Assembly: GCA_963674785.1 (NCBI GenBank)
Contig: OY771555.1
Coordinates: forward strand, 74,511 to 138,510
Reading direction: 5' to 3'
Length of the DNA stretch: 64,000 bases
From: Caldisericia bacterium
GTDB lineage: Bacteria > Caldisericota > Caldisericia > JAAYUI01
Position numbers and translations under genes: made by a program
Shown: positions 1 through 63,950 of the stretch, piece by piece
Position numbering within the stretch: the first letter of the stretch is position 1
Layout: each line of letters begins with the position of its first letter
The notes under the pieces: model-generated
Databases searched by the model: none
Told to the model about the DNA's origin: nothing
What the model saw: the letters and a program-made list of their open reading frames with translations, nothing else

Positions 1-1
1 T

Positions 2-823
2 GCTGATTATAAATCAGAAGAGCTTTCCGATGGAAGAGAAAAGATCACGATCAACAACACGGTTTTGGGTGAAAATGTTGTAAGGGATGTTGATGAAACA
101 AGAGTAAAAATCGAAACAGTAGTTAGAACTCAGGAAACACCATCAAAGGTCATTCTCTATATTGTCAAAAAAGATAATGAAAGCATTAGCGTTGGAGAGT
201 TGAAAAACCCTAATCGATTGATCATTCAAATCTATGAGCAGGTAAGACAGGGACTCTCTGGGAAAACAATCATCATTGACCCCGGTCACGGTAACCTCAT
301 TACAAACGGTGCTTATGATCATGGCTGTATAACTGAAAAAGGAATTAAGGAATCTGATGTTTCTTTGAAAATCGCACAGTCTCTTCAAAAAATCCTAAAC
401 GAGAAGGGTGCAACTGTTGTACTGACAAGAAACTCAGCTATAAGCGAAGATGCAACACTCGATAACAGACTCACCCTTGCAAATGGTGGTGGTTCGCACA
501 TGTTCATCTCAATTCACACTGGGTTTTCAAGAGACCCCAAGATGCAAGGCTGCAGGACATTCTTTTATGCACCCCTTGGCGAAAGACTTGCAAATCTTAT
601 TCAACCTGCAATCTCGAAATCCACTGGTTTTACGAACCTAGGAGTTTTCAAAAGAAATTACTACATGTGCAGAAAGATTTCAGGGATTCCTTCTGTGCTT
701 GTTGAACCATTTTTTCTTAGCAACACCCAGGGAGAAAGCTTTTCCGGAAACCAAAAAAACATTGACAATCTGTCAAAAAATATTAGCCAAGCAATAATAG
801 ATTATTTTGAGGAGATACCATGA
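2..823 (+). CDS. N-acetylmuramoyl-L-alanine amidase (Amidase_3 family), 5'-partial. The frame is open to the window edge and the track start at 65 is a TTG.
   Basis: Contains 'TIIIDPGHGN...GAYDHG' and 'GIPSVLVEPFFLSN', which are hallmarks of Zn-dependent MurNAc-LAA amidases. The reading frame has no stop between position 2 and 65. Confidence 0.8.
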   Translation, partial: ADYKSEELSDGREKITINNTVLGENVVRDVDETRVKIETVVRTQETPSKVILYIVKKDNESISVGELKNPNRLIIQIYEQVRQGLSGKTIIIDPGHGNLITNGAYDHGCITEKGIKESDVSLKIAQSLQKILNEKGATVVLTRNSAISEDATLDNRLTLANGGGSHMFISIHTGFSRDPKMQGCRTFFYAPLGERLANLIQPAISKSTGFTNLGVFKRNYYMCRKISGIPSVLVEPFFLSNTQGESFSGNQKNIDNLSKNISQAIIDYFEEIP

Positions 824-1530
824 GAAATGATGGAAGAAATTTTGATGAACTAAGAAACATAGAAGTTTTAACAGACACAATGAAATATGCAGATGGTTCT
901 GCGGAAATCATCTGGGGAAACACCCGGGTTATCTGTACCGCCTCCTGGGAGCCAAAAGTTCCACCATGGATGAAAGGTGAAGGGCAGGGCTGGATTACTG
1001 CAGAATACGGCATGCTTCCACGTTCCTCAGCCCAAAGAATTCAAAGAGATATTAACAGACTCAAGAAAGCCCCAAGGTCTGTTGAGATTCAAAGGCTCAT
1101 CGGGAGAACAATCAGGTCTGTTGTTGACCTTGAAAAAATGGGCGAAAACACAATGACAATTGATTGTGACGTCATCCAGGCAGACGGCGGGACAAGGGTT
1201 GCTTCAATTGTTGGCGGATTCATTGCTATGGTTCAAGCCTTCAGGTCAATAAATGACGGTATGGTTCCCATAAATGATTATCTTGGTGCTGTTTCTCTTG
1301 GTATCATTAATGGTGAGAATCTTCTTGACCTCTGTTATGAAGAGGATTTCAGAGCTGAGGCAGACATGAATTTTATCATGTCTGGCAAAGGTGAGATTGT
1401 AGAGATTCAGGTAACAGCAGAGGAAAAGCCATTTTCTCTCGAAACATTCAACTCACTGGTGAAACTCGCATCAAAAGGAATCATGGAGATTGTTGAGATT
1501 CAAAAGAAGGTTTTGGGGGAGTTGAAGTAA
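820..1530 (+). CDS. rph: Ribonuclease PH
   Basis: 236 aa. 'MRNDGRNFDELRNIEV...GSAEIIWGNTRVICTASWE...CDVIQADGGTRVASI' matches the RNase PH family pattern. The ATGA start overlaps the upstream stop. Confidence 0.9.
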   Translation: MRNDGRNFDELRNIEVLTDTMKYADGSAEIIWGNTRVICTASWEPKVPPWMKGEGQGWITAEYGMLPRSSAQRIQRDINRLKKAPRSVEIQRLIGRTIRSVVDLEKMGENTMTIDCDVIQADGGTRVASIVGGFIAMVQAFRSINDGMVPINDYLGAVSLGIINGENLLDLCYEEDFRAEADMNFIMSGKGEIVEIQVTAEEKPFSLETFNSLVKLASKGIMEIVEIQKKVLGELK

Positions 1531-1605
1531 GATAGAGTCACCAAAAACAAACAAAAGCATCTTCATTGTGTCAAATCCTGTACCCGATTTTGGGAGAAAG
1601 GAATC

Positions 1606-3236
1606 GTGATGGGATTTAAAGGCTTTGCCAAGTCTATAGCTTTTGTTCTTGGATGTTTGATGTTTGTTTCGATAATCGGTTGTGGGAATAGTTATGTCTA
1701 CTCACCAACTCCTGACACGTACAGATGGGTAACCATTAATGGAGAGGATTACAACCCGAACTTGGATACAAATGCACCTATGTTTGAGGAGGGGAAAACA
1801 CCTGATATTATCAGTGATTTTGTTTTTAAAGGTGATACAATTTACTTTCTTATAAGAGAGGAAAACTCAAACAAATTCATCAGATGTGTAAAGTATATCG
1901 ATGGAAAGATACTCAATCTTGATGATACAAAATGGAAATCGAGTCCAACAAAACTATTTTTGTCACCTTTCAATGAAGCAAATGAACCAAGTTCATTTGC
2001 AATCGATTCAAATGGTTTTCCGCACATTGTATGGTCAGATAAACCTGAATATATAAAGACTTTGGATCACAACAAGGATATCTACTATGCGAAATGGGAT
2101 GGACAAGATTGGTACACTATCCAAGGTCAAAAAGTAAACATAGAATCTGATAATGCAAATGTTTCAAGAAATGTTGAGATTTGCTCAACATATTCGCCAA
2201 GAATTGCACTAGGTTCAAAAGATAATCCCCATATTGTTTGGCGTTCGCATAACCGTGAAAATCAATCTGAAGAATATATATATCTAAACTATCTGAAATG
2301 GGGTGGTAAAAACTGGTTAACTTCCGATGGCACCCAATACAAACCACGAAGCAACTCAGACTCAATCGTTGGGAGATTCAGCAATGCTGAAATAAGTGGT
2401 GATTATTTTTCCACATTCCCCATCATTAAGATGGATAAAGATGATAATCCTCACATTTTTGGAACTACAAAAATACAGGTAAGACAGAAGATATTGAATA
2501 CGAGTTTTATGAGAAAATGTATATCAAGTGGACAGATGAGGACGGTTGGGTTTTCAATAATGGGAACCTCTGGGATCCAACTATTCGATTTCTGAATCTC
2601 AATAACAATATCCAATCATTATTTATAACATCAGATTTTTCAATTGACAGTCATGGAGATACTTATCTTGCTTGGCTAGGTTTTTTTGATGAGTACCCAT
2701 CATTTGGCATATTTATAATCAAGAATGTCGATGGTGAATGGAGAACTTTGAATGGTGAAAAATGGGACTCCGCCAATCCAAAGAACGCACTTGTTGAATC
2801 GTTAGGACTTTATTCTGCTGATAGATATTCACTCAAATCATGTGATATTCAGATAAGCGTTGATAGAAATAACAATCTACATTTACTTCTTAGTAATGGT
2901 GAAAGCTCGAATAGAAATATTCAACAATTAGAAAACCCATGTTTGTATTATTTCAAATCTGATGGTGAAAACTGGTATTCAATCGATGGGCAAACAAATG
3001 AATCAAACATGAAGGATTTTGGCTTGATACACAGAGGCTCAATAGAAAAGGGGATGCTACAATCATACCTACTTCTAGATGATCAATATAATCCCCATAT
3101 CATATGGAGGGGAACCAGCATTAAGGAGCTAGATAATTTTAATTATATAAAAGCAATTAAGCATACTAATAACTGGAACCCAATACACCCCAAAAAAAGC
3201 ATTTGCAAAAAACAGTTATTCCTGCTATCTTGGTAA
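1606..3236 (+). pseudogene. W-rich repeat lipoprotein. Two ORFs (1606-2595 and 2517-3236) are joined by a -1 frameshift in a T5 tract at about 2456-2460.
   Basis: The N-terminus has a signal peptide plus lipobox ('SIIGCGNS'). Both ORFs carry the same repeat: 'NPHIVW...EEYIYLNYLKWGGKNW' in the first and 'EYEFYEKMYIKWTDEDGW' in the second. Frame 0 is open from 2448 and continues the repeat exactly where frame 1 loses it. One extra T in the tract would restore 'NPHIFWNYK'. Confidence 0.65.
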
Positions 3237-3257
3237 TTGGGATAGGAGGGGTATGTT

Positions 3258-3767
3258 ATGAAGATCAGTATCTTTGAACATATGAAAAGATGTAGGATTT
3301 GTGGGGAGAAGTCTAGCTACACTGTTTGTCAAAATTATGCATCGGAAACAGAGCTTCAACTCATGAGGGAGATTGAGTCAATCAACAAGAAGATTTCGGA
3401 AAATACTAAGAGACTTTTTAAGTGTAAGCTTAAATTACCAAAACTAAATCCGTATTTTATCATGGCATTTTTGCTTCTATGGTTATTCTTCACACACTCG
3501 TTCCTTTTTGCGAAATTCGTCCATGAGCCAATTGTAATGATTTTTATTGCAGCATTGTCAATTCTATTTTTGATTTTTTCAGTCTATTTCTGGATTTTCT
3601 TTCCGATGGACAACATCAAAAACGGTGTCGAGTTCATGGACGCAAAACATCAAAATCTCATCCTCAAAAGACACAGAAAATACTACCTAAAGATGCTCAA
3701 AAAAACACCTGAGAGCTGGACAAAACTCGACCTAATGAAGATAAAGTTTGAGACACTTGAGGCTTAG
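3258..3767 (+). CDS. Small membrane protein with N-terminal zinc ribbon (CxxC-x13-CxxC) plus 2 TM helices (paralogue 1)
   Basis: 'CRICGEKSSYTVCQNY', then a coiled segment, then two hydrophobic helices, then a short C-terminal domain. It has the same architecture as the adjacent gene. Confidence 0.6.
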   Translation: MKISIFEHMKRCRICGEKSSYTVCQNYASETELQLMREIESINKKISENTKRLFKCKLKLPKLNPYFIMAFLLLWLFFTHSFLFAKFVHEPIVMIFIAALSILFLIFSVYFWIFFPMDNIKNGVEFMDAKHQNLILKRHRKYYLKMLKKTPESWTKLDLMKIKFETLEA

Positions 3768-3773
3768 GGGAGG

Positions 3774-4286
3774 ATGAACATGAAGTGTAGAAAATGTAAT
3801 GAACAATCACCGTTTCCAGTTTGCCCAGAGTGTGCAAACGATCAGGAACTTGAAATAATAGAAACAATTGTCAAAATCGATGAAACCATAAGGGTCGACC
3901 GTGATCGAAAAAAGGTTCTGTTCGAGTATGTGTTCCCACTAACAAAACCAATGATCATTGCATTTATTCTCTTCGCATTAAGCATCATTACTTCGAATTA
4001 TCTAAACTCAGCCATTCTTCCAATTGTTTCAATGGTTTTAGCTGTTTCACTTTTTATTTACTCTTGGATAATCCATCTTCCGCTCAAGTCTGAAGCGATT
4101 GAAGACTACAGAGACATGAAAATCAGAATTGACCAACTCAAAAAAAGGAAAGAGTTTTTGCTTGATCTTCTAAAGAACTCGCCTGAAAAATGGTCGGAAG
4201 CTGAGCTTCAGGTTGTCAGAAGTAACATTTTTGCAGACGGTGAGGGAGGATATGATTATGATCCGATCGAGGTTTATTTGAGGTAG
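3774..4286 (+). CDS. Small membrane protein with N-terminal zinc ribbon plus 2 TM helices (paralogue 2)
   Basis: 'CRKCNEQSPFPVCPEC', then two TM helices, then a C-terminal 'SPEKWSEAELQ' that parallels 'TPESWTKLDLM' in paralogue 1. An RBS-like 'gggaggatga' lies upstream. Confidence 0.6.
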   Translation: MNMKCRKCNEQSPFPVCPECANDQELEIIETIVKIDETIRVDRDRKKVLFEYVFPLTKPMIIAFILFALSIITSNYLNSAILPIVSMVLAVSLFIYSWIIHLPLKSEAIEDYRDMKIRIDQLKKRKEFLLDLLKNSPEKWSEAELQVVRSNIFADGEGGYDYDPIEVYLR

Positions 4287-4295
4287 CTGAAGAAT

Positions 4296-5975
4296 CTATT
4301 CAGTTTTTTTCGCTATTTCTGTCAGCAATCCTTTCGAAATATCAAACTCATAATCATAAAACTTCTCGATTACCTTATCTCCTGGTATGATCATTTTCGC
4401 ATGAATAAGGATTATGTCTTTATCATCGGTATAATCCCATTCAGTGATATAGTAATTATCCCTAAATGGTGTGGTTATCTCATAATACGGCTCATCAACC
4501 CCTGGTTTGAAAAGTCTGAATCTGTTATCTGGCATAAACGGCATACAGAGGATTCCATGTTTGCTGAAGCAATAGAAATCAGGGAAGAAGTGTTTTCTAC
4601 AGTCGCCCGATAATTGATACATCGCTTGGATATAGTAGCTGTACGGCTCAAACATCTCTGATTTCATGTTATAAATATCGATCCTATGGTGATATTCACC
4701 ATTTCGAATCTCTGGAATCAAATGATATCTGAAATCACCAATCTCCTGATAGCTCATGACATCATCGGTTTTCATTTTCCAAATGTACTTGAACGTTTTC
4801 ACATCAAAAGCTTCCAAGTAACCACCGTGCATGTAAATCATTACTCCATTATCTCTAATACTTGGAACCCGCCCATTACCGGCACCCATATTTTCTTCAA
4901 ACTCATAAATTATTTTGTCTCTTGTGATATCAACCAAATACGCTTTGTAACCAGTGATAACAAGCAAAATATCATCGAGAATATCTTTAAATGCAAATTC
5001 AATACTACTGCCCAAATCTCCATTGAAATTATGAAGACTGATGACAAAGAACTCTGATTCGCCAGTTTCAATATTGAATTTATCTATCTCGCATTTTTTC
5101 CCGGTATTGAATTTATCAGGTTCATAATCAATCACTTTCATGAAATAAAATAGATTTCCCCGTGAAAGCGTTGTGAAAAATTCCCGACTGGAAAGCCCTT
5201 CAAGTGAAAACTCTTTCACAACTTTCCAATCACTTGTCTTGATAAATGTCATTTTTTGAACAGGTGACTTCCAACTCATGAAAATAAAAAAGTGGTCACT
5301 AAAACCGTAAAGCTTCCCATACTCCCCAGGGACATCACAAACAATTTTTCCATTCCTCACATCTACAATCTGTTTAAACCCATTTTCATGAGAATTCCCC
5401 AAAAGGATATAGTTCTCCCTGATTTTTCTAGAATATATCTTATCACTTGATTTCACTTCCTCATCAACTTCAATCTCCCATTTGACAGAGCAATCATCAA
5501 GATAATAAGCAACCAACTTTTTATCATCATTGTCTACTTCAACCAAAAAAGGTCTTTTGTCCCAGAAAAGCATTCCGGCATCTTCACAAAAATTGTAGTC
5601 TGTTCTTTTTCCGTCAAAACCAATATGAACAATGATTCTGTTACCCTCATCATCAATCGGATATTTTGAGAAAACCACACCATCTTCAACAATCATTGGT
5701 GACCAATAATTATTCTGCTCGCTTAATTTTGGTAATTCACAATCAAGAAGAATTTCCGCTGTTTCTGCATCCCGCAAGTGAAATCTGCCCTTATCGAGAA
5801 TGTAGAATGATAGATATGGGTCGTGAGAAGAAAGGTTATCACCGGCAGGTGAGGGATAATAAAACTCCGATACCCCTTTTTGAAATTTCCATCTGCCCTC
5901 TTTTGCCCTGCTGACCCCAGCCACACCAAGTAGAAGCACCATCACCAGAAATATTGCAATATATCTTCTTTTCAT
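4296..5975 (-). CDS. Secreted hypothetical protein (559 aa)
   Basis: Long ORF with an N-terminal signal peptide 'MKRRYIAIFLVMVLLLGVAGVSRA'. I recognised no catalytic motif. Confidence 0.55.
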   Translation of the reverse strand: MKRRYIAIFLVMVLLLGVAGVSRAKEGRWKFQKGVSEFYYPSPAGDNLSSHDPYLSFYILDKGRFHLRDAETAEILLDCELPKLSEQNNYWSPMIVEDGVVFSKYPIDDEGNRIIVHIGFDGKRTDYNFCEDAGMLFWDKRPFLVEVDNDDKKLVAYYLDDCSVKWEIEVDEEVKSSDKIYSRKIRENYILLGNSHENGFKQIVDVRNGKIVCDVPGEYGKLYGFSDHFFIFMSWKSPVQKMTFIKTSDWKVVKEFSLEGLSSREFFTTLSRGNLFYFMKVIDYEPDKFNTGKKCEIDKFNIETGESEFFVISLHNFNGDLGSSIEFAFKDILDDILLVITGYKAYLVDITRDKIIYEFEENMGAGNGRVPSIRDNGVMIYMHGGYLEAFDVKTFKYIWKMKTDDVMSYQEIGDFRYHLIPEIRNGEYHHRIDIYNMKSEMFEPYSYYIQAMYQLSGDCRKHFFPDFYCFSKHGILCMPFMPDNRFRLFKPGVDEPYYEITTPFRDNYYITEWDYTDDKDIILIHAKMIIPGDKVIEKFYDYEFDISKGLLTEIAKKTE

Positions 5976-6034
5976 AACTCACCCCATTTGTTTCTACTAT
6001 CTAATACTCGGTCGGGGTGGAAAATGTTGAGTGA

Positions 6035-7039
6035 TTATTTTTGGAGGGAGATGATTTCTTTTACTTTTTCTGGATTCTCTTTGACCCAAAAATACTTTCG
6101 TGTTTTCGATGTTATTGAAACCTTATAAGCATCTGCACCTTCATATTTTGAATTCTTATCCGAGTATTCTAAAAAATCCCATTGCCACAATTGTGATATT
6201 GGAATCCTATTTTTTTCATTTGTAATTTCTTCAAGATCAAAATATTCAAAAAAACCTTTCTTTTCTTTTTGTAAACGTATAAAGTAGCTATCTTGTTTAT
6301 CAAAATTAAATCTGTAGTTGCTGTCATCTTTTAAGATAAATGTTGGAATATTCCAAATTAGTTTCAATAACCCCCAATCAAATTCATCGAAGTTTTTGCT
6401 ATCCTCATAGATTTCTTTTATTTCAGTTATAAACAAGTCTTTATCGCTACTTCTTAAATGCCTGAGTAATTGTTTACCTTCTTCAAGGATTACACAAAAC
6501 TCTCCTTGAGTTGGATCGGTATCAAATCCCAAACAATTGTTATTCTTTAGCCCGTTAATAAGAGATGACCCGATTTTTTGTAGGTCAAAAAAAATTGAAT
6601 ATTCTCCAGATTGACCAAACCCTCCTCCATCTGCACCACTTTGACTATAGTAAAGCTTAGGAAACAAATCGATTGCTGATAAGAACATTCTATGTTCACT
6701 TCCAAGATTAGTAAGAAGTTTCATTAAATTTGTTTTTTTACCGCTTTCAGGCGTAAGAATAGTTGGATTATTGCTCGCAAGAGTCATCGCAATCTCATTG
6801 CTCCCCTGTAATGCAACAGCAAGTTGTTCATTAACAGATTTAGTTATTAACCCATCTATTCCCTCAAGCTTCTTGTCAAGTTTTAGATATGATGCTTCTG
6901 CTTTTTCAGATTCTCTATTGGCAATTCTTATCGATTTGTAAGCCAAATAAATGGACACTAATCCTAAAACAATCCCAACAACACTTCCAATACTTTGAAG
7001 GTTCTCTAGAAACCAAACCCAAGCAACTTTTATCCACAT
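6035..7039 (-). CDS. Membrane-anchored hypothetical protein. The track ORF extends to 7087; the likely start is the Met of 'MWIKVAWVW'.
   Basis: One N-terminal TM helix, then a roughly 300 aa K/N/F/Y-rich domain ('SGADGGGFGQSGEY', 'GFDTDPTQGEF'). It is AT-rich relative to its neighbours. Confidence 0.5.
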   Translation of the reverse strand: MWIKVAWVWFLENLQSIGSVVGIVLGLVSIYLAYKSIRIANRESEKAEASYLKLDKKLEGIDGLITKSVNEQLAVALQGSNEIAMTLASNNPTILTPESGKKTNLMKLLTNLGSEHRMFLSAIDLFPKLYYSQSGADGGGFGQSGEYSIFFDLQKIGSSLINGLKNNNCLGFDTDPTQGEFCVILEEGKQLLRHLRSSDKDLFITEIKEIYEDSKNFDEFDWGLLKLIWNIPTFILKDDSNYRFNFDKQDSYFIRLQKEKKGFFEYFDLEEITNEKNRIPISQLWQWDFLEYSDKNSKYEGADAYKVSITSKTRKYFWVKENPEKVKEIISLQK

Positions 7040-7102
7040 TACTCTCAACTCCCAAACACTTGGTGGCTGATTTTCACCAGCCACCAAAACAATTATCTAA
7101 AT

Positions 7103-7387
7103 CTATCCCAACTTAAACATCACACCATAACCACCTCTGGGGAAGTTCCATGTGATGTTGCTATATGGGCAACCGATGCGGCAGCTGCCACATTCAAGGC
7201 ACCCTTCATACACGACATCGATGTGGTCTTCTTCCCAGATATAGACCTTTGCCGGGCAGAAGATGGTGCAGGGTTGACCATGCTCCTCCATGCATTTTTT
7301 GCAGATTGACTGGTCTGCAATTTTGAGATGTGGAGTTTCATCAACTTTGAATCGGGTGGTGTACAGTTTGTCTTCAATTTTGCTCAT
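7103..7387 (-). CDS. fixX: Ferredoxin-like protein FixX. The likely start is 'MSKIEDKLY'; the ATGA overlaps the fixC stop.
   Basis: 'CTIFCPAKVY...GCLECGSCRIGCP' is a typical FixX cysteine pattern. Confidence 0.85.
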   Translation of the reverse strand: MSKIEDKLYTTRFKVDETPHLKIADQSICKKCMEEHGQPCTIFCPAKVYIWEEDHIDVVYEGCLECGSCRIGCPYSNITWNFPRGGYGVMFKLG

Positions 7388-8688
7388 CTTACAGCCCTCC
7401 ATCCTCTCCATGCAATCTTAAGGAGTTTCATGAGTCCCACTTTTTTCTTGAAGTTCTTTTTGATTTTTGCCTGTTTTTCACGTTTTGTTTTGCCATCGAC
7501 AGTTAACATCTCTTCAACTGTTTCACCAAGGAACTCTGGCACCTCATTGAATACTTCTTTATTTTTATAAAGGAAATGACCAAAGTTTTTATACTTTTTC
7601 ATGTCTTTCCCAACAAAACTCTTCATGACATTGTCACTGTATTCTTTGAGAATTTTTTCTGAGGTGTCTCCCGCTTTGATTGCTTTAATGGCCATTTCAC
7701 CTGCCATTCGACCTGTTGCTTGGGCGAGGTTTGTTCCTTCACGATGAAGGGTATTGAAAAGCATCGCAGTATCACCAGCAAGCACATATCCATCACCATA
7801 GAGTTTTGGAATTGTATCCCAGCCACCCTCTGGTAACCAGTGGGCGGTGTATTCTTTAAGTGTTCCTCCCTCGATGAATGGTGCGATGAAGGGGTGTTTT
7901 TTGAATTTATCCATCAGTTCATATGGGGTGTTTTTGTTAACCATCCATTGCTTCAGGTTTGCACCAAGACCAAGCGAAACTGTGTCTTTGTTTGTGTACA
8001 TGATGCAGATTCCATCCATACCATCAACCTGACTGCCAAGAATTTCAAACGTGACACCCTCACCAGATTTTACAGAGAATCGTTTATTTACTTCCTCTTC
8101 ACCAATCTGGATGTTTTCCTTCACTGAAAGGGCAACATTTTCTGGTTTGACCTCAGGTCTGATGCCAGCTCTAACTGTTAGTGGTGATTGGATACCATCT
8201 GCAAAAACCACCATTTTGCCAAAAACATCACCGTCTGGTCTTCCTGTTCTGACACCAATTACTTTTCCAGTGTTGTCTCTTAAAACCTCTTCAACACAGG
8301 TGTTACAGATAACAAGTGCTCCAGCTTCCTGGGCTTTTTTTGCATACCATCTGTCGAATTTTGCACGGTGAACAGAGAGAACATTTGGAGTATCTCCTGC
8401 AAACTTGCCGGTTTTATATCCCATCTGGAAAGCGCCATCATCATTCATGAGAACAATTCTTGAATCAGTGATTTGTCTTTCAATTGGGATTCTTTTTTCT
8501 TTCCAGAATTCAGGGACAATTTTTGCAATCTCGCTTGCATAAACCACCCCCCCAAAGACACTCTTTGAACCTGGAAACTCACCTCGCTCCAGAACGATTG
8601 TTTTTATCCCTGCACGGGCTGCAACAATTGCTGCACTGATTCCAGCGGGACCTGCACCAACAATTATCAGATCAAATTTTTCTTCCAT
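7384..8688 (-). CDS. fixC: FAD-dependent oxidoreductase FixC (ETF-quinone oxidoreductase-like)
   Basis: N-terminal 'DLIIVGAGPAGISAAIVAARAGIKTIVLERGEFPGSKSVFGGVVY' is a Rossmann FAD-binding motif. The protein is 434 aa. Confidence 0.85.
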   Translation of the reverse strand: MEEKFDLIIVGAGPAGISAAIVAARAGIKTIVLERGEFPGSKSVFGGVVYASEIAKIVPEFWKEKRIPIERQITDSRIVLMNDDGAFQMGYKTGKFAGDTPNVLSVHRAKFDRWYAKKAQEAGALVICNTCVEEVLRDNTGKVIGVRTGRPDGDVFGKMVVFADGIQSPLTVRAGIRPEVKPENVALSVKENIQIGEEEVNKRFSVKSGEGVTFEILGSQVDGMDGICIMYTNKDTVSLGLGANLKQWMVNKNTPYELMDKFKKHPFIAPFIEGGTLKEYTAHWLPEGGWDTIPKLYGDGYVLAGDTAMLFNTLHREGTNLAQATGRMAGEMAIKAIKAGDTSEKILKEYSDNVMKSFVGKDMKKYKNFGHFLYKNKEVFNEVPEFLGETVEEMLTVDGKTKREKQAKIKKNFKKKVGLMKLLKIAWRGWRAVR

Positions 8689-9695
8689 CAGTTCACCCTC
8701 TTTTCCAAATCAGAGATAAGCTCTGGCAAGGCATCCTGCCACCTTTTGACGATACCGACAGTTGATACTTTGAAAATTGGGGCATTGGGGTCATTGTTGA
8801 TTGAGATGATGACATCAGAGTTTTGCATGCCAACAAGATGCTGAATGGCTCCGCTTATACCAACTGCAATGAAGACTCTTGGTACAACTGTTTTTCCAGT
8901 TTGCCCAACCTGACGCTCAACAGGCAGAAGACCGGCTTCAACCATTGGTCTTGAGCCTGCGACCTCACCACCAAGAAGGTCTGCCAGTTTTTTGAGCTGT
9001 TCAAATCCTTCCTGGCTGTTGACACCTTTTCCACCTGCAACAATTATTTTTGCATGTTCAATTTCAACTGCACCCGCTTTATCTGGGATAAATTCGAGAA
9101 CCTTTACTGTTATATCCTTTGGGTCAACTGGAACAGAAACATCAATTACTTCACCTTTTCTTGCTGGGTCTGGATTTCCTTTTTTCATGACCTTTGGTCT
9201 GACAGTTGACATCTGGGGTTGTCCCTTTTGGCAAAAGATTGTTGCCATGATATTTCCACCAAATGTTGGTCTTGTTGAAAGAAGCTTGAAGGTTTTATCA
9301 TCAATATCAAGACCTGTGCAATCGGCAGTGAGTCCTGCCTGAAGGACTGTTCCAACAGCTCCTGAAAGATCACGACCAAGTGGAGTAGCACCTATCAAAA
9401 CAATTGTTGGTTTGTATTTTTTTACAACTTCGCAAAAAGCGTTGTTGTACGTTCTTGTTACATATGTTTTATATGCTGGATCATCAACAACATAAACAGT
9501 GTCTGCTCCATACTCTATGGCTTCCTTTGCAAACTGTTTTACGTTGTCACCAATGATTAAGGCACTAACTTTTTGACCAAGTTTTCCAGCGAGCCTTGTT
9601 GCCTGACCTAAAAGCTCCCAGCCAACCTCCTGAGGTTTTCCGTCTGAAACTTCGATAAAAACAAGCACATCTTTCCACTCAGTATTCTCAGCCAT
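8688..9695 (-). CDS. fixB: Electron transfer flavoprotein alpha subunit (FixB/EtfA)
   Basis: C-terminal 'VFIAVGISGAIQHLVGMQNSDVIISINNDPNAPIF' is the ETF-alpha FAD-binding signature. Confidence 0.9.
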   Translation of the reverse strand: MAENTEWKDVLVFIEVSDGKPQEVGWELLGQATRLAGKLGQKVSALIIGDNVKQFAKEAIEYGADTVYVVDDPAYKTYVTRTYNNAFCEVVKKYKPTIVLIGATPLGRDLSGAVGTVLQAGLTADCTGLDIDDKTFKLLSTRPTFGGNIMATIFCQKGQPQMSTVRPKVMKKGNPDPARKGEVIDVSVPVDPKDITVKVLEFIPDKAGAVEIEHAKIIVAGGKGVNSQEGFEQLKKLADLLGGEVAGSRPMVEAGLLPVERQVGQTGKTVVPRVFIAVGISGAIQHLVGMQNSDVIISINNDPNAPIFKVSTVGIVKRWQDALPELISDLEKRVN

Positions 9696-29202: not shown

Positions 29203-29688
29203 ATGAAGACTCTGGTTGCCTACGCAACGAAATCTGGAACATCTGAAAAGTGCGCAAACCTTATCGCGAAGGAGTTTGACAATGTCGATATTGTAAACCT
29301 GTCAGAAACTGCACATCCGCAGTTCCTTGAATACGATCTGATCATTGCTGGTGGTCCAGTCCGAATGGCCAACCTTCACGCACATCTGATTAGGTTCTTG
29401 AAAGCAAACATCAGAAAGCTCGAAAAAAAGAATATCGCCCTTTTTATCTGTTGCATGGAACAGGGTGAAAAGGTTCAGGAACACATTGAAAAAGGATTCC
29501 CAAAACAGCTTCGTGAAGTAGCCCTTGCAATATCACATCTGGGCGCTGAGCTCAACTGGGACAAAATGGGCACGCTTGAACGTGCCATGATGAAAAAAAT
29601 TGTTTCATCCCAGAAGATTGATGAACCTTGTATCAATGAGGATGCAATAAAAGGATTTGTTGAGAAGATAAAGGCAAGCTTGGCCTAA
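29203..29688 (+). CDS. Flavodoxin-like protein (Flavodoxin_5/HemG-like fold)
   Basis: 'MKTLVAYATKSGTSEKCANLIAKEF...YDLIIAGGPVRMANLH' is a flavodoxin-type FMN-binding N-terminus. The protein is 161 aa. Confidence 0.6.
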   Translation: MKTLVAYATKSGTSEKCANLIAKEFDNVDIVNLSETAHPQFLEYDLIIAGGPVRMANLHAHLIRFLKANIRKLEKKNIALFICCMEQGEKVQEHIEKGFPKQLREVALAISHLGAELNWDKMGTLERAMMKKIVSSQKIDEPCINEDAIKGFVEKIKASLA

Positions 29689-31355
29689 TCCAAATCTATC
29701 TGATAGAGATCATAAACAAAATTCATATCATCAGCCTTCATATTTGAGGGGAGTGAGAAAAGTAGTTTGTTTCCATCAAGTTGCACACTTTCTTCTTTTA
29801 GGTTATATGCATCCCATCCTTTCATAACAGTCTCGGTCTTACCCTCTGAAACGTTAAAAAGATTGAGAGTTGATTTTTCACCCTTCTTTGAAGAAACATC
29901 TGGTCGATAAACAACGTATTTCTCATTACAAATATCAATATCAGATTTCGATTCCAGAATAAAAAGCTCGATTAAAGATTTTGAGATGTAATCAAACATA
30001 AAATATTTTTGACTACATAGATTCTTATTTGGAGGCGCATTGACTACATCTGCAAAATCGCAATCATTTCTTTCAAAAAACACAAACGCGGTCCTATTTT
30101 TTGAGTAATTGTTTATTGGATAAACAGAGCTAAAACTGTCAATAATAAAATCGAATGTTTGAAAAAAACTTATATCTTCGTTGGTCTTCTTGTATTCAAA
30201 ATACTCTAACTCAAAATCCATATAATCGACAAAAGATCCAACCTCATTATCGGGCTTAACCACAACGCCAATTTTGATTGCGTGTCGCTGTATACTCGCA
30301 TTTTTACACCTATCAATAATATTACGAGACCTGATCTTATCATATTTTTTAAATTCTGATACATCTTCTAGAACAATCTTCCTAGAATAAAACTCATCTA
30401 TTTTGAGTTTTTCTGTCGAATCAAAAAACATTGCCCTATTGATCACATTAACAAAAACACAGACCTCATTCAGCTTATGTTCATAATAAATATCCCATTC
30501 AATTTCATCGGGGCTTTCAGCAACAAGTCTTGGCTCTGGAATGACACCCTCTGCAAATTCTTTGTCCTCTAGATTGATGGCATAGACCTGAAAGCCTGAA
30601 CATTCTCCAGCATCATTCAATTTTTCCCTCTCATAAGCAATCCAGTTTTTGCATATCTTCAAATTACTTCTCATCAATGAATGCTTTGTGGCACGTGTTT
30701 CATCAAAACCAAGCTTTGAAAAATATATATCATTCATCAAGGTATAATCTTTTGTATGCCGTCTATCAAGCCAAGCAATATAATCATCATTCACTACGAC
30801 ATTATTCTCAAATTCATCGAAATCCATTACGGTTCGAACAGTTCCAATATGAGAAATAACGCCCGTTTCTTTATCCATCTTTTTTAGATATATCCGGTCG
30901 GAACGATTATCAAGGTCAATGTGAGATGCAAAAATAAGATATTTTTCATTTTGTTTAATTGATGTTGATGCAATATTTGAAAGCAAAAGCTTTGGTCTAT
31001 ATTTTGAGTTTTTTAAATGAACAAAAATCCATGAAATCAAGAGTACCGAAACTGTCAGGATAATGATTAAAGTAGAAAAAATCTTTACCGATTTTCTCTT
31101 CTTCGAAATTTTTTGAATGGCGACTTTTTCGGAATCTTCAAATCTATCCTTCCACACTTTCTGTTTTGCGAGTATCGAATCAGCAACCTTCAAAGCAGCA
31201 ACTTCTGCATACCCCTGAGTTTCGGAGATGTGCTTTGCGAGACTCTCTCTAACCTCTTCAAAGGGTTTAAGGATTTCGTTTTCGTCAATGCAATTCTCAC
31301 AATATTCTCCCAGCCTGTCGTGATTTCTACCACATGATTCACAAGTCTTACTCAT
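29685..31355 (-). CDS. Zinc-ribbon / single-TM / extracytoplasmic beta-propeller-like protein (paralogue A; anti-sigma-factor-like architecture)
   Basis: N-terminus 'MSKTCESCGRNHDRLGEYCENCIDENEILKPFEEVRESLAKHISETQGYAEVAALKVADSIL', then one TM ('IFSTLIIILTVSVLLISWIFV'), then a large domain with 'DDYIAWLD' and 'KNWIAYERE' repeats. Confidence 0.65.
   Translation of the reverse strand: MSKTCESCGRNHDRLGEYCENCIDENEILKPFEEVRESLAKHISETQGYAEVAALKVADSILAKQKVWKDRFEDSEKVAIQKISKKRKSVKIFSTLIIILTVSVLLISWIFVHLKNSKYRPKLLLSNIASTSIKQNEKYLIFASHIDLDNRSDRIYLKKMDKETGVISHIGTVRTVMDFDEFENNVVVNDDYIAWLDRRHTKDYTLMNDIYFSKLGFDETRATKHSLMRSNLKICKNWIAYEREKLNDAGECSGFQVYAINLEDKEFAEGVIPEPRLVAESPDEIEWDIYYEHKLNEVCVFVNVINRAMFFDSTEKLKIDEFYSRKIVLEDVSEFKKYDKIRSRNIIDRCKNASIQRHAIKIGVVVKPDNEVGSFVDYMDFELEYFEYKKTNEDISFFQTFDFIIDSFSSVYPINNYSKNRTAFVFFERNDCDFADVVNAPPNKNLCSQKYFMFDYISKSLIELFILESKSDIDICNEKYVVYRPDVSSKKGEKSTLNLFNVSEGKTETVMKGWDAYNLKEESVQLDGNKLLFSLPSNMKADDMNFVYDLYQIDLD
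31172..31355. repeat. Copy 1 of a roughly 185-bp near-identical direct repeat (5' ends of the tandem paralogues)
   Basis: 31172-31355 and 32781-32965 align with only scattered mismatches, e.g. 'agtatcgaatcagcaaccttcaaagc[a/c]gcaacttctgcatacccctgagtttc...'. Confidence 0.8.
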
Positions 31356-32965
31356 TGTCCACCAGCCTTCACGAGTTTATGAAGATCCCATTTGTATGCA
31401 TTTTTTTCATTTATTCTTTGTTCATAAATTTCCTCTTCATGTAGTCTTATATGGCCATTTGACTGAAGATCAAATGATGTGTATTTTTTCAACTCTTCAA
31501 GCTTTCTAGTTATAAAATCATATCGATATAGAGGAATATCTTCATCCCCACTTTCATAGTGTGGCACAAAAACAAATTGTGATGAGTTGAATGCAACACC
31601 TAAGGTTTTATTCATGTACTCATTTCTTCTAGGAGGGGCAATATCCTCAAAAAACATTTCGAGTTCACCCTCTTCAAAGTAGTAGCAATAAAAGCTACTA
31701 TTCTTCTTTGAAGTATTCTTTATTGTGATTTGTTCCCCGGGCTTATCTTTTAGATAGATAACTTGCTCACCTGGATCTTCAGTGAAAAAAACAACCTTTT
31801 CACCATCACCCCACTCATATCGAAGATTATCAAAAACTCCAATGGATTTTGAATCCTGTGTTTTTTTATCATACAAAAGCAGCTCAAATCTAGTTGGGGT
31901 TATCAATCGAACAAGATTGCTATCGGTAATATCTGAAAAATCGTTTATTTCTCTTTGATAGACAATAGTTTTATCAAACACATCAAGAATAGCCGTGTCA
32001 TCTGCAAATAATAATGGGTTTAGTTCAACAGTTTCACCATAAAATTGTCGCAAATCAAATCGATATGTGAAAGAATATATTCCTTCATCTGAAATTTCTT
32101 TTTGTTGGACAGCGAAAAGAAGAACCTTTCCATCGGGGCTCTTTTCAAGTTTCCATGTGTCGTTATCCTTGTAATAGTTAGGTTTGTCATAAACCACTTT
32201 CATTATCCTCATGCTTTCTGAATCAGGACGTGATAAATTGTGTGCATAAAATTCCATGTCCATATTATTTAATGCGACTCCATACACCAAACAGTTATCT
32301 AAAATCTTTATATCCCAATCATTTATAAACCTGTCTACCTGATCCGTGACAATTACAAAATTCCCATCAAAATCTGAGGCAAAAATTTTGTTTTCTACGG
32401 TCCAGGCAACGTAGTCATCAGTAATCCAAGATTGTCTCATGTTTCCCCAGGCCTGAAAATCCCATGGTTCACCGATTTGAGAAATTTCACCAGTTTTTTT
32501 ATTTTTTATATAAACACCGGAGAGATCTCCAACACTATCTTCATAGATATAAAAGTTTGAGTTCTGATGGATATATCCATATGCACTTTCAACAACCATC
32601 TTTTCAACATATGAAGATTTTTTAGTACCTGATGTAAACAATCCGGAAACAATTGCAACAACCAATAAGGCAACAATTGCACCAACAAAAAACGATGAGG
32701 CGAGAGGAAAGAACGGTTTTCTGTTTCCGGATTGTTTATCGGATTTTAAAAATCTAGCACTCCAAGCTGGCCTTGATTCAAGTATCGAATCAGCAACCTT
32801 CAAAGCCGCAACTTCTGCATACCCCTGAGTTTCAGAAATGTGTTTTGCAAGACTCTCTCTAACCTCTTCAAATGATTTGAGGTTTCCGTCCTTATCTACA
32901 CAATTCTCACAATATTCCCCCAACTTGTAGTGATTTCTACCACATGATTCGCAAGTCTTACTCAT
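31352..32965 (-). CDS. Zinc-ribbon / single-TM / extracytoplasmic beta-propeller-like protein (paralogue B)
   Basis: The N-terminal roughly 60 aa are nearly identical to paralogue A ('MSKTCESCGRNHYKLGEYCENCVDKDGNLKSFEEVRESLAKHISETQGYAEVAALKVADSIL'). One TM, then a divergent repeat domain ('DDYVAWTVENK'). It overlaps paralogue A by 4 nt and tetR by 8 nt. Confidence 0.65.
   Translation of the reverse strand: MSKTCESCGRNHYKLGEYCENCVDKDGNLKSFEEVRESLAKHISETQGYAEVAALKVADSILESRPAWSARFLKSDKQSGNRKPFFPLASSFFVGAIVALLVVAIVSGLFTSGTKKSSYVEKMVVESAYGYIHQNSNFYIYEDSVGDLSGVYIKNKKTGEISQIGEPWDFQAWGNMRQSWITDDYVAWTVENKIFASDFDGNFVIVTDQVDRFINDWDIKILDNCLVYGVALNNMDMEFYAHNLSRPDSESMRIMKVVYDKPNYYKDNDTWKLEKSPDGKVLLFAVQQKEISDEGIYSFTYRFDLRQFYGETVELNPLLFADDTAILDVFDKTIVYQREINDFSDITDSNLVRLITPTRFELLLYDKKTQDSKSIGVFDNLRYEWGDGEKVVFFTEDPGEQVIYLKDKPGEQITIKNTSKKNSSFYCYYFEEGELEMFFEDIAPPRRNEYMNKTLGVAFNSSQFVFVPHYESGDEDIPLYRYDFITRKLEELKKYTSFDLQSNGHIRLHEEEIYEQRINEKNAYKWDLHKLVKAGGQ
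32781..32965. repeat. Copy 2 of the roughly 185-bp direct repeat
   Basis: See copy 1. Confidence 0.8.
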
Positions 32966-33566
32966 TGTCCCCTCCTGTTATTTGACTAATGAAGAATTGT
33001 TTCAAAACATCCCCAAATCTTGTGATTACTTCTTGATTTGGAGAGTAGAGTTCTTTGTTTTCAAGATACCGATAAATCAGACCTATCCACATGTTTGACG
33101 CAATAATTGGGTCAGAGTTTGGAGAAACTGATTTTAGACAGTCAATGATCATTGATGAGATTTTCATCTCAAACTGAAGTGCCTGAAGTTTTGCTTTTTC
33201 AGGGAGAAGAGATTTTCTTACAATAAGGTTTACATAAAGCCCTTCATTATAACCGATCATTCTCAGATGTGATTCAATTGCAGTTTCCAATGGGATTGAG
33301 GAGTTATCAGATGGGAAAAAGTTTGAGGCTTTAAGGATATAGCTTTCTAAAACTGCAGATATTAACATCTCACGTGATCCAAAATGAGCAAAGATCGAAC
33401 CATGGGCAACTCCTGCAGCTTTTCCAGCCTGCTTGATGAAGCTTTCATTGACACCTTCAGCAGAAATTATTTCCGTTGCGGAGTCGATGATTTTTCTTCT
33501 GGTTTGTTCCTTTTTTTCAAGCCTTGATAGATTATCTGTCAAAGTATCTCCTTTTCGTTGACTCAC
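32958..33566 (-). CDS. TetR-family transcriptional regulator
   Basis: The N-terminal HTH 'RRKIIDSATEIISAEGVNESFIKQAGKAAGVAHGSIFAHFGSREMLISAVL' is typical of TetR_N. Confidence 0.8.
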   Translation of the reverse strand: MSQRKGDTLTDNLSRLEKKEQTRRKIIDSATEIISAEGVNESFIKQAGKAAGVAHGSIFAHFGSREMLISAVLESYILKASNFFPSDNSSIPLETAIESHLRMIGYNEGLYVNLIVRKSLLPEKAKLQALQFEMKISSMIIDCLKSVSPNSDPIIASNMWIGLIYRYLENKELYSPNQEVITRFGDVLKQFFISQITGGDNE

Positions 33567-61474: not shown

Positions 61475-61978
61475 TTATAGCTCTTTATAAATCTCCCATA
61501 CTTTACCTTGTGATTCTCCGATAGTTCTCCTGATCCCCATATAAAACAGTGAGTTCATATGAGGTTCTATTTCTATATCTTGAGTGCTTCCCACAAACTC
61601 AATCGGATCAAAAAAAGAGATGCTATTGTGTCCATCTTCGAGTACTAGTTTGAAATAAGTATGGTGAGAAAATCTTGTTATTGGACATGTTTTTATTACT
61701 GCATCAAATTGTGGATTTCTAAAAACCCGCTTCGATAAAATCCCTTTTACAATAATTTGTGGCTCATTATCAACATATTCAAGTGTTATTTTCATCCTCA
61801 TAAAAGCTCGTGACGCAGCATAGAAAAGAATCGCAACAATAAACACAGCAAAAATGGACATATGAAATCCATCGGTACCAAAAGTTATCAACACAACAAA
61901 CAAAATTAATAAGCCAAACACAAGCATCCATGCCTGTCTTGCAGGGTCATTTAAAACTGTACATTCAATTCTTTTCAT
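61475..61978 (-). CDS. 2TM plus bPH-like small membrane protein (tandem paralogue 4)
   Basis: Two N-terminal TM helices, then 'KITLEYVDNEPQIIVKGILSKRVFRNPQFD', which parallels the three upstream paralogues. Confidence 0.55.
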   Translation of the reverse strand: MKRIECTVLNDPARQAWMLVFGLLILFVVLITFGTDGFHMSIFAVFIVAILFYAASRAFMRMKITLEYVDNEPQIIVKGILSKRVFRNPQFDAVIKTCPITRFSHHTYFKLVLEDGHNSISFFDPIEFVGSTQDIEIEPHMNSLFYMGIRRTIGESQGKVWEIYKEL

Positions 61979-61982
61979 ATTT

Positions 61983-62624
61983 TCAGCCCTCTTTAAATGG
62001 ATTGAATTCTTTTTCTTCTGTTTGCTTCAATCTTTCTATCAAATCATTGCTCGAATCAATTTTTCGTTTTGTTGTTTTTATTTCTGCATCAGGGTCTTTT
62101 TCGAAGCTTTCAAGAAGCCATAATGTTTCCCACATAAGATGTTTGCTTTCACCAATTGCAGTGTATGTATCTAAAAATGATGTTTTCTGCTCCAAATAAT
62201 AAGTATCATCCTTATCAATATCAGTTGATTTAACAGACATAGTCAATGATCTGAATTCGGTATAAATCATAAGGTAATCATTTATTCTTGAGTACCGGTT
62301 GTTTATTCTTATTAATTGTTTGCCCATACAAAATTGAAATGGCCACACAATAACAGTTTTCGAGAGCAAGCCTTTTGCTGTTATTCTGGGTTTACCAAGT
62401 TCAAAATCGAGAATCACTCTTATCCTAAAGACAAACCAGGCTATGAGAAATGTGCACCCAAATATGCCAAATAGAAGGAGTACAATTGGGGTGTTGGAGT
62501 TAAAAATATTTGTTGTGACACCGAGATAAATAAATACAAAGAATTCAAAGAAAAGAAAAAAGATAATGGCAGGATTATTCAAAAACTGCATTCTTATTTT
62601 GATATTTCGGCTTTCCTGATTCAT
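61983..62624 (-). CDS. 2TM plus bPH-like small membrane protein (tandem paralogue 3)
   Basis: 'ILDFELGKPRITAKGLLSKTVIVWPFQF'. C-terminus '...EKEFNPFKEG'. Confidence 0.55.
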   Translation of the reverse strand: MNQESRNIKIRMQFLNNPAIIFFLFFEFFVFIYLGVTTNIFNSNTPIVLLLFGIFGCTFLIAWFVFRIRVILDFELGKPRITAKGLLSKTVIVWPFQFCMGKQLIRINNRYSRINDYLMIYTEFRSLTMSVKSTDIDKDDTYYLEQKTSFLDTYTAIGESKHLMWETLWLLESFEKDPDAEIKTTKRKIDSSNDLIERLKQTEEKEFNPFKEG

Positions 62625-62727
62625 TTACTATTCTCACTTTGTTTCATCGAAAAAGACTCGATTATAAGCAACCAAAAGAAGGCAGGGTTATTGTTCAGTC
62701 TGCATTTTATCGTTTCCACTGTTCCCC

Positions 62728-63354
62728 CTATTCGTCCTCAACAAATGGTGACTCATAAAATTCTTCCTCAGCATTGTGCTCAATCTTTGAGGGTGTGATA
62801 TTTGTCTTTTTGACATTGAGCTCATTTGTTTTCCAGTCTTCGATTTTTGAAAACAATTCATTCAATCGATATTCATTGTTTCCAACAACATACAACGAAT
62901 CTAAAATACTTGGATTTATCTTTTGCTGCAAATCTGAATCTAGTTCTTCAAGCAAAACCTTAGAAACAATTTTGAAAACGAATGAATTTCTAGAAAAAAC
63001 AGCAAAATGCACATGAGATACTGCGCGTTTCATATATACTCTATTTTCTGATCCCCTTTTATACGAAAACGGCCAAACAAGAATGCTTTTTGAACTTTTT
63101 CCAGCAAAAGTCAAACGTGGTTTGGAAAGTGAAAAATCAAGCGTAAGTACAACTTTAAAGTTCAAATACCCAAGATAAAATACTGCAATAAACAAGGCAA
63201 TAACAAAGACAGTCAAAACTGAAGGTTTATAAAATATGCTGAATTTTGTATAAACACCGAAAACAAAAAAGACGAAAATCTCAATCGCGAGAAATATCTT
63301 TAACGCGAAACCATTTCTGAGTTCCACTTCTATTCTATAATCTTTGTCGGTCAT
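62728..63354 (-). CDS. 2TM plus bPH-like small membrane protein (tandem paralogue 2)
   Basis: 'VLTLDFSLSKPRLTFAGKSSKSILVWPFSY'. C-terminus '...EEEFYESPFVEDE'. Confidence 0.55.
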   Translation of the reverse strand: MTDKDYRIEVELRNGFALKIFLAIEIFVFFVFGVYTKFSIFYKPSVLTVFVIALFIAVFYLGYLNFKVVLTLDFSLSKPRLTFAGKSSKSILVWPFSYKRGSENRVYMKRAVSHVHFAVFSRNSFVFKIVSKVLLEELDSDLQQKINPSILDSLYVVGNNEYRLNELFSKIEDWKTNELNVKKTNITPSKIEHNAEEEFYESPFVEDE

Positions 63355-63950
63355 TATTCCTCACCCACAAACGGATTTTCAAAAACGAAATCCTTTTCAT
63401 CAACTTCTACATTATCTGATTCGGTTTTCGGCTGTTCCTTTGCCTTCAGTTTATCATAAAGGTTCCACACAAAATCTGGGTATGGCTTTATGTTGATTAT
63501 CATTTTGCTATCTTTCTGCCTTATCAGTGATTCTGTCTGAACTCCTTCAATTATTTGATTTGGAGGAAGCCTTTCGAAAAAACAAAATCGTCGATTTTCT
63601 GAATCAGTGATTGCAAGCCTGAAATATACTCCCTCATCTCTTCTTGCAACAATTATCATTTTCCCTTCAAAACGATACGGATAATCTATCTTTGCTTTAA
63701 GAAACCTTCCATTTATGGTGATGTTTAGATCTTTTGAAGTAACTTCCAATTTCACATTGATCAGTTGCAATACTGCATAAATCACATAAATCAGCAGAAC
63801 CGATAAAATCACAATTGCATATATCAATCCATCATCAACATTTGCAAAAATCATAATGATTATTGCTAGAATAAAAACTGCAAAAAACGAGCAACCAACA
63901 AATTTATTCGCTGCCAAAGAATAATTGAAATTACCAGTTTGTTCTTTCAT
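63354..63950 (-). CDS. 2TM plus bPH-like small membrane protein (tandem paralogue 1)
   Basis: 'KLEVTSKDLNITINGRFLKAKIDYPYRFEG'. C-terminus '...DEKDFVFENPFVGEE'. The start overlaps the next gene's stop (ATGA). Confidence 0.55.
   Translation of the reverse strand: MKEQTGNFNYSLAANKFVGCSFFAVFILAIIIMIFANVDDGLIYAIVILSVLLIYVIYAVLQLINVKLEVTSKDLNITINGRFLKAKIDYPYRFEGKMIIVARRDEGVYFRLAITDSENRRFCFFERLPPNQIIEGVQTESLIRQKDSKMIINIKPYPDFVWNLYDKLKAKEQPKTESDNVEVDEKDFVFENPFVGEE

Follow-up and report, generated by a model that had tools for sequence, protein, structure and literature searches.

Small two-helix membrane proteins with candidate zinc ribbons form an undescribed Caldisericota family mostly encoded between gatA and gatB

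What do two adjacent small genes, each apparently encoding a cysteine cluster followed by a membrane hairpin, contribute to the bacterium that carries them? The genes, called A (3258-3767) and B (3780-4286), lie on the + strand of a 64,000-nucleotide stretch of contig OY771555.1 from a Caldisericia bacterium; the whole of this stretch is referred to here as the window. A first-pass annotation had read the pair as a minimal membrane-tethered zinc-ribbon family and guessed at a regulator of a partner, a mini anti-sigma factor or a holin-like protein. The family itself is borne out: its members are conserved, are under purifying selection and have no extracytoplasmic sensor. They constitute an undescribed, phylum-restricted membrane-protein family that currently has no Pfam or NCBIfam model, and the chief new result is the unusual and conserved operon position of this orphan family.

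The open reading frame (ORF) listing confirmed two adjacent, co-directional genes, first described as encoding 169 and 170 amino acids (aa). Gene A encodes a protein of 169 aa that belongs to the A-type subunits of the family. Gene B has a mechanical ORF of 170 aa (3774-4286, + strand). Its most likely start is the ATG at 3780 rather than 3774, because this position leaves a 6 nt spacing after the Shine-Dalgarno sequence and gives the 168 aa length of the public orthologue P0001; the product is a B-type subunit with an intact C4 (four-cysteine) ribbon motif. Two Shine-Dalgarno sequences were read on the + strand. The first, GGAGGGG (3245-3251), is 6 nt before the gene A ATG, in a stretch conserved in the syntenic locus L001 (GCA_041391325.1). 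The second, GGGGAGG (3767-3773), would serve gene B and overlaps the gene A stop codon TAG (3765-3767) by one base. The A-B gap of 6-12 nt suggests that the genes are co-transcribed and their translation coupled. A BLASTP alignment of A with B spans nearly the full length with 28% identity and 53% positives (E=2e-15). Thus the two proteins are true paralogues, as the first pass had supposed, and their likeness is not due to chance. A promoter and terminator scan of 1400-7500 gave fewer matches than shuffled sequences did and is uninformative, and an Rfam scan of window positions 1-9000 found no RNA family.

The two proteins share one plan consisting of an N-terminal Cys cluster, a helix of ~30-35 aa, two hydrophobic helices and a tail of ~55-65 aa. 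The first pass had described this succession of cluster, helix, two transmembrane (TM) helices and tail correctly; it had given the ribbon a spacing of x13 and the same ribbon in both proteins, where the sequence has x8 and A has three cysteines. The gene B ribbon, CRKC-x8-CPEC (3786-3833, +), spans residues 3-18 and reads CRKC-NEQSPFPV-CPEC. This CxxC-x8-CxxC ribbon has no His ligand, and it is strongly basic (MKCRKCGKK...). Gene A retains a ribbon remnant, CRIC-x8-CQNY (3291-3338, +; residues 12-27), in which the last of the four Zn ligands is missing; its relative in L001 (CQII) likewise has no fourth Cys. At the other end, the proposed common tail motif containing a tryptophan is present as TPESWT in A (3705-3722, +; residues 150-155) and SPEKWS in B (4179-4196, +; residues 134-139). 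A motif of the form (K)P..xW(S/T) is common to A- and B-type members, and the B-type orthologues keep it as (P/S)S.(K/Q/E)WS.

AlphaFold2 (AF2) models of A and B were built on a 9-sequence alignment. The gene A model, with a predicted local distance difference test score (pLDDT) of 81, has a beta hairpin at residues 10-19 and helices at 30-59, 65-87, 91-114, 117-148 and 156-168. The gene B model (pLDDT 76) has helices at 21-74, 79-132 and 140-147. In both models beta bridges are placed at the ribbon knuckles. Together with the Cys motif, these bridges make a C4 zinc ribbon, presumably binding zinc, the candidate fold for the N-terminus. AF2, hydropathy and the distribution of Lys and Arg place the gene A membrane hairpin at 3450-3599 (+), with TM1 at residues 65-87, a 3-residue turn and TM2 at 91-114. 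The gene B hairpin maps by AF2, hydropathy and the positive-inside count to 3942-4079 (+), with TM1 at ~55-74, a turn at 75-78 and TM2 at ~79-100.

Across 31 members, the density of Lys plus Arg is 21% before TM1, 19% after TM2 and 9% in the inter-TM loop. This loop is 1-9 residues long in 30 of the 31 and has no conserved charge. The predicted arrangement is thus an N-in/C-in hairpin with essentially no external surface, which disfavors a sensor role. In this respect the first pass, which had seen no sensor domain, was right: the external loop typically has 1-9 residues. No conserved polar or charged residues occur in the TM helices or loop of family members, and a selective channel is therefore not supported.

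How widely is the family distributed? A word-indexed protein search with B returned a single orthologue, P0001 (90% identity, 168 aa), from a Caldisericia bacterium metagenome-assembled genome (MAG). The same search with A gave no match, because the A orthologue in L001 is split by indels. The L001 sequence carries many single-base indels in homopolymer runs between 8683 and 12200, which fragment rph, the A orthologue, fixC and a 559-aa gene; these look like assembly or sequencing error rather than pseudogenisation. More relatives were found with profiles. An A+B profile, run exhaustively with HMMER over 1.84 billion cluster representatives, retrieved only 15 proteins at E<=1e-3. A profile search among 5.8 billion clusters yielded 7 that belong to the family, and five further loci came from scanning the GTDB species genomes and JGI metagenomes with a B-type alignment. 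Against the family hidden Markov model (HMM), gene A scored E=5.8e-53 and gene B E=1.5e-54. Every titled family record is a Caldisericia or Caldisericales MAG. With so few relatives, all the titled ones from these taxa, the family is rare and on present evidence restricted to Caldisericota. A literature search found no paper linking Caldisericum with gatB and none describing such a family.

The first pass had named a confident match to a described family as the result that would overturn its reading; such a match was sought in profile and structure searches and not found. No threshold was exceeded when A and B were scanned against Pfam, NCBIfam, PADLOC and PHROG. The PDB sequence-profile search gave nothing below E=0.007, its top match being a designed repeat protein. 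Foldseek searches of the A and B models against the PDB and of the B model against BFVD gave nothing significant (best E=0.12), and the matches were generic long helical hairpins such as those of Vipp1, colicin and chemoreceptors.

The genomic position of the family is its most distinctive feature. In all loci except the window and L001, the family is encoded inside the gatCAB operon, between gatA and gatB. Searches by tblastn placed gatB directly downstream of the arrays and gatA upstream wherever the contig reaches; the L014 and L019 contigs are too short to show gatA. About ten gat-locus lineages are represented (L002/L005, L008, L010, L011/L018, L012, L013, L014, L015, L016/L017 and L019). 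Each array has 1-5 tandem paralogues in a conserved order, either a C-type, one to three A-types, a B-type and then gatB, or a D-type directly before gatB. Thus L002, L005, L015 and L010 have a C-type (137-140 aa), two A-types and a B-type between gatA and gatB, and L011 has a C-type with 4 TM helices, three ribbon-less A-types and a B-type. L016/L017 have an E-type (176 aa) followed by a D-type (139 aa), and L013 has a D-type alone. In the D-type lineages L008 and L012, ribbon-less 2TM genes precede the D-type, four in L008 and three seen on the short L012 contig. These small proteins fill the space from gatA to the ribbon gene (L008 6339-7875; L012 154-1247). The family HMM faintly matches three of the L008 proteins and one from L012 (E 1e-5 to 2e-3 in a small database), and they could be degenerate family members.

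Most array junctions are overlaps, of the ATGA type or of 8 nt, or gaps of 0-20 nt. In L013 the gap from gatA to the D-type gene is 0 nt and the D-type gene overlaps gatB by 8 nt; some gaps in L011 and L008 exceed 100 nt. The tight junctions indicate that the arrays are transcribed together with an essential housekeeping operon and, at some junctions, translationally coupled to it. The window and L001, which are syntenic and ~89% identical in nucleotide sequence, are the sole loci with an A-B pair after rph, and gatCAB was not found within the window. The pair nevertheless corresponds to the gat-locus genes one to one: gene A matches the L010 A-type with 32.7% identity (E=1.4e-20) and gene B the L010 B-type with 40.6% identity (E=1.7e-39). 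Since A and B are each orthologous to A-type and B-type genes, the duplication and the order of A before B predate the divergence of the lineages.

Could the family then serve GatCAB itself? A membrane-anchored GatCAB or translation accessory, with a ribbon that binds GatB, tRNA or the ribosome and so localises transamidation, would fit the gatA-gatB position in every lineage except the window and L001. In that position the genes are mostly overlapping or closely adjacent, and the L013 and L016 members overlap or abut both flanking genes. The ribbon is strongly basic, and it has a generic weak similarity to the RNA-binding ribbons of L37e and Nop10. These ribbon similarities, however, are non-significant, the window and L001 pair is detached from gatCAB yet under purifying selection, and a copy number of 1-5 is unusual for a stoichiometric enzyme accessory. 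We know of no GatCAB of another phylum that requires a membrane partner. An accessory of this general kind is quite unlikely. Its most specific form, a Caldisericota-specific accessory that anchors the GatCAB transamidosome to the membrane, with ribbons binding GatB or tRNA and thereby tethering Asn/Gln-tRNA formation there, has a smaller chance still. Such tethering would explain the tight packing, often with overlaps, between gatA and gatB across the class.

The same loci bear on the anti-sigma guess. Those long enough usually have, 3' of gatB, a gene for an extracytoplasmic function (ECF) sigma factor followed by its own zf-HC2 anti-sigma gene. A mini anti-sigma factor, or a membrane-tethered transcriptional regulator that sequesters a partner via the ribbon, would accord with the presence of the ECF sigma gene in most gat-locus arrays, and the combination of a cytoplasmic Zn module with a membrane anchor resembles general anti-sigma logic. 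But that sigma gene is in every case followed by one for a separate zf-HC2 protein of 750-812 aa. The small proteins have no HxxxCxxC motif, match neither zf-HC2 (PF13490) nor any other anti-sigma profile, and offer no extracytoplasmic sensing surface, and no sigma gene adjoins the pair in the window. The guess is not supported and is hardly probable.

How the sequences have diverged distinguishes the subunit types. The ratio of nonsynonymous to synonymous substitution rates (dN/dS) between the window and L001 is 0.18 for gene B, comparable with the 0.12 of rph. Gene B is therefore under purifying selection, even away from the gat operon. Between L002 and L005 the values, noisy with few substitutions, are 0 for the C-type, 0.39 for the B-type, 0.77 for A and 1.39 for A2. 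The ribbons follow the types as well. No B-, C- or D-type member examined has lost any of its four cysteines, and the gene directly before gatB has an intact ribbon in every case. The A-types lose C2, C4, both (CREW...CKNY) or the whole ribbon (L011, L014). The window A-type has lost C4 (CQNY), and C2 differs even between near-identical genomes, with CRIY in L002 and CRIC in L005.

The reading that we favor, tentatively and at a little under an even chance, is that these proteins are subunits of a constitutively expressed hetero-oligomeric membrane anchor or adaptor with its ribbon heads in the cytoplasm. Each subunit would insert as an N-in/C-in helical hairpin with almost nothing outside the cell. 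The helices before TM1 and after TM2 would extend into the cytoplasm and carry, at their ends, the very basic C4 zinc ribbon of the N-terminus and the tail with its W motif. A- and B-type subunits, and C-type where present, would be made together from adjacent, tightly spaced genes and join in the cytoplasmic membrane as a hetero-oligomeric helical bundle. The bundle would be a constitutive anchor or adaptor. Its intact B, C and D ribbons may dock a cytoplasmic protein or nucleic acid at the membrane, the A-types being structural partners with dispensable ribbons. Expression is expected to be constitutive and non-toxic, since the genes are embedded in an essential housekeeping operon.

Several points weigh against this anchor or adaptor. 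First, paralogy, architecture, the topology signal, the phyletic restriction, the ordered arrays inside gatCAB and purifying selection are shown, whereas hetero-oligomerisation, zinc binding, docking and the identity of a partner are inferred. Second, the AF2 models were built from 9 sequences, with pLDDT of 76-81 and a predicted template modelling score (pTM) of ~0.58. Third, in a helical-moment test against shuffled sequences, amphipathic periodicity reached significance in a single one of the four helices that A and B extend into the cytoplasm; with the other three non-significant, a coiled-coil stalk is not claimed. Fourth, the near-unity dN/dS of A-types may mean that they are decaying copies and not structural partners. 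Finally, the pair lies outside the gat operon in the window, and the operon position may be a historical accident.

A lethal rather than structural role must also be weighed. In a SLATT- or holin-like pore, the 2TM module would oligomerise on a trigger and permeabilise the membrane in defence or abortive infection. Gene B matches NCBIfam SLATT_5 (E=2.5e-3; residues 61-137 to 32-111 of 180) and PADLOC RTasSLATT (E=2e-4, 19.1 bits; residues 61-131 to 37-107 of 176) in a consistent register. A SLATT protein appeared at rank 6 in the viral fold search (E=0.3). In L001 the cyclase and NucC endonuclease of a cyclic-oligonucleotide-based antiphage signalling system (CBASS) are encoded at a variable spot ~2.5 kb downstream. 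Individual scans of 24 family members for SLATT, SCO2097, DUF3040 and RseC signals, however, gave the SLATT match in two only, B and its 90% identical orthologue. It is effectively the match of one protein, at 17.4 bits against the curated cut-off of 60 for SLATT_5. The signal is thus not a family property, and SLATT membership was rejected. The CBASS of L001 comes with a NucC effector of its own and is missing from the window and from all the gat-locus arrays, and no SMODS, SLOG or reverse transcriptase sensor accompanies the family in the window or in the roughly ten gat-locus arrays. The family is conserved vertically inside an essential operon and not in defence islands. That embedding within gatCAB disfavors a lethal pore, and conserved polar or charged residues are lacking in the TM helices and loop. 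Nor did the holin guess find support, there being no phage or lysis genes nearby and no PHROG match below E=0.01 (the best, at E=0.014, is to a family whose function is unknown). Class II 2TM holins were rejected as well; Pfam Phage_holin_3_6 was matched by consensus sequences only, at 18-20 bits against 28.4. A pore of either kind is very unlikely.

The first pass had also joined the pair to two larger ribbon proteins of 556 and 537 aa (29685-32965), taken to follow the same ribbon-helix-TM plan. The latter are paralogues of each other (E=2e-43) with a CxxC-x10-CxxC motif, one TM helix and a ~430-aa external domain. Kinship with the small family is unsupported. The small-family HMM gave no match to them at E<1, the ribbon spacing is x10 versus x8 with one TM helix versus two, and hhalign gave 28% probability over 36 ribbon columns only. 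The likeness is at most an architectural analogy. The two large proteins, encoded on the minus strand, are ~90% identical over their first 60 residues and have diverged in their external domains. Their genes immediately follow, and overlap with, a gene for a TetR-family regulator (32958-33566, minus). They are TcaA-like in architecture and match no Pfam or NCBIfam family.

The window holds a second, unrelated tandem array at 61475-63950 (minus strand), with four paralogues of 167, 213, 208 and 198 aa. In every one a two-TM hairpin at the N-terminus precedes a C-terminal domain of ~100 aa, and all share the motif (K)P(R/Q)I(T/I)(A/V)KG(L)LSK..(I/V)(V)WP(F). Against the small-family HMM they score E=0.05-0.3 only.

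The neighbours of the pair are those named in the first pass. On one side is a repeat lipoprotein with a frameshift (1606-3236), and on the other are two orphans, secreted or membrane proteins, encoded at 4296-5975 and 6035-7087 (minus). The lipoprotein gene, on the + strand upstream of A, is split into two overlapping ORFs. It has weak BNR_4 and PDIAV_lipo matches and repeats of the form (D)NPHI(V/F)W ... Y.KW.G..W. Its frameshift is near 2455-2460, where an extra T in the T5 run at ~2455-2459 would restore ...PHIFWNYKNTGKTEDIEYEFYEKMYIKWTDEDGW, fitting the repeat pattern; the split reflects either a sequencing error in the homopolymer or a frameshift that is genuine or phase-variable. The whole lipoprotein region (window 1515-3200) is absent from L001. 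Downstream, the 559-aa protein (4296-5975, minus) has a signal peptide and a weak beta-propeller match (Beta-prop_ACSF4, E=0.0017). Its gene converges on gene B with 9 nt between the stop codons and no terminator-like hairpin; it adjoins B in L001 too and is absent from the gat-locus arrays. Between this gene and fixX is a variable hotspot, window 6030-7104 against L001 12256-14900. In the window it holds a 350-aa orphan with one N-terminal TM helix and no family match (6035-7087, minus). In L001 it holds a 110-aa TM protein and the CBASS pair, a SMODS cyclase (PADLOC E=3e-55) and the NucC endonuclease (E=4e-71). The 350-aa orphan may thus occupy a defence-island slot, since L001 carries the CBASS pair at the same spot.

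Many small membrane proteins carry a cytoplasmic zinc ribbon, and almost all of them are uncharacterised. The present family is experimentally tractable, being confined to one poorly studied phylum and organised in ordered tandem arrays lodged in the essential gatCAB operon. It is also a clean case of subunit specialisation, with ribbons strictly kept in the B-, C- and D-types and decaying in the A-types. If the operon position reflects function, the family would give a tRNA-dependent amidotransferase its first membrane partner. If it does not, the family would be an envelope or membrane scaffold specific to this lineage, and it would be useful as a phylogenetic marker for Caldisericota.

Comparison with known systems begins with DUF3040 (PF11239) and the SCO2097 proteins (SCO2097, Rv2169c, Cgl2168), which are likewise small, with a cytoplasmic N-terminal helix, a tight 2TM hairpin and N-in/C-in topology. 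SCO2097 associates with the MreB-organised spore-wall complex and Rv2169c reportedly interacts with MmpL3 (PMC4255298, PMC12554045). The present proteins might then be distant, ribbon-bearing relatives acting as 2TM scaffolds that recruit cell-envelope biosynthesis machinery. A consensus of the C- and D-types exceeded the gathering score of Pfam DUF3040, with 29.4 bits against 24.7 (E=1e-6, residues 20-98 to 4-82 of 84), and scored 31 bits on NCBIfam SCO2097_fam (E=2.6e-7). Five of the 24 real members matched SCO2097_fam weakly (E 8e-4 or weaker) and two matched DUF3040. The consensus match does not stand clearly above the control with reversed sequence. The reversed consensus scored 14.9 bits on DUF3040 and 24.2 bits on the unrelated DUF373, while real C- and D-type members reached at most 15.7 bits on DUF3040, under the gathering score. 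When the consensus was split, the TM-only part gave 15.6 bits and the ribbon-plus-helix part gave no match. The A- and B-types, which are those in the window, gave no DUF3040 match either as members or as consensus sequences. DUF3040 proteins furthermore have no zinc ribbon, no long helix after TM2 and no W-motif tail, and they are an actinobacterial signature found near the dcw cluster, not in gatCAB. The similarity of the C- and D-types is taken as an unproven remote resemblance, and the reading of the family as envelope scaffolds related to DUF3040 is an unlikely one.

The SLATT_5 and RTasSLATT proteins share the helix-TM-TM-helix layout and the register of the sub-threshold gene B matches. 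They differ in that the present family has no fused or adjacent sensor and belongs to a housekeeping operon, not to a conflict island. From class II phage holins with two TM helices the family differs in its length of 140-170 aa and its long cytoplasmic helices. RseC/MucC (PF04246) proteins, of ~130-160 aa, likewise have an N-terminal Cys-containing cytoplasmic segment and two TM helices, and align at residues 4-95 to 18-109 of 130. RseC/MucC was rejected at 13.5-13.9 bits against a cut-off of 24.4 in two of the 24 members only; the family also has no rsx/rnf or rpoE-rseAB context.

Finally, TcaA-like zinc_ribbon_2 proteins have a CxxC...CxxC ribbon at the extreme cytoplasmic N-terminus followed by a membrane anchor, and NCBIfam TcaA matches the family weakly, at 16-19 bits over the ribbon plus TM1. 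In Caulobacter, ZitP is a bitopic protein with an N-terminal cytoplasmic zinc ribbon that binds PopZ. TcaA-like proteins and ZitP have one TM helix and a large extracytoplasmic domain, whereas members of the present family span the membrane twice, have no external domain and are encoded in tandem arrays. A protein-docking role is plausible for this layout of ribbon and membrane anchor.

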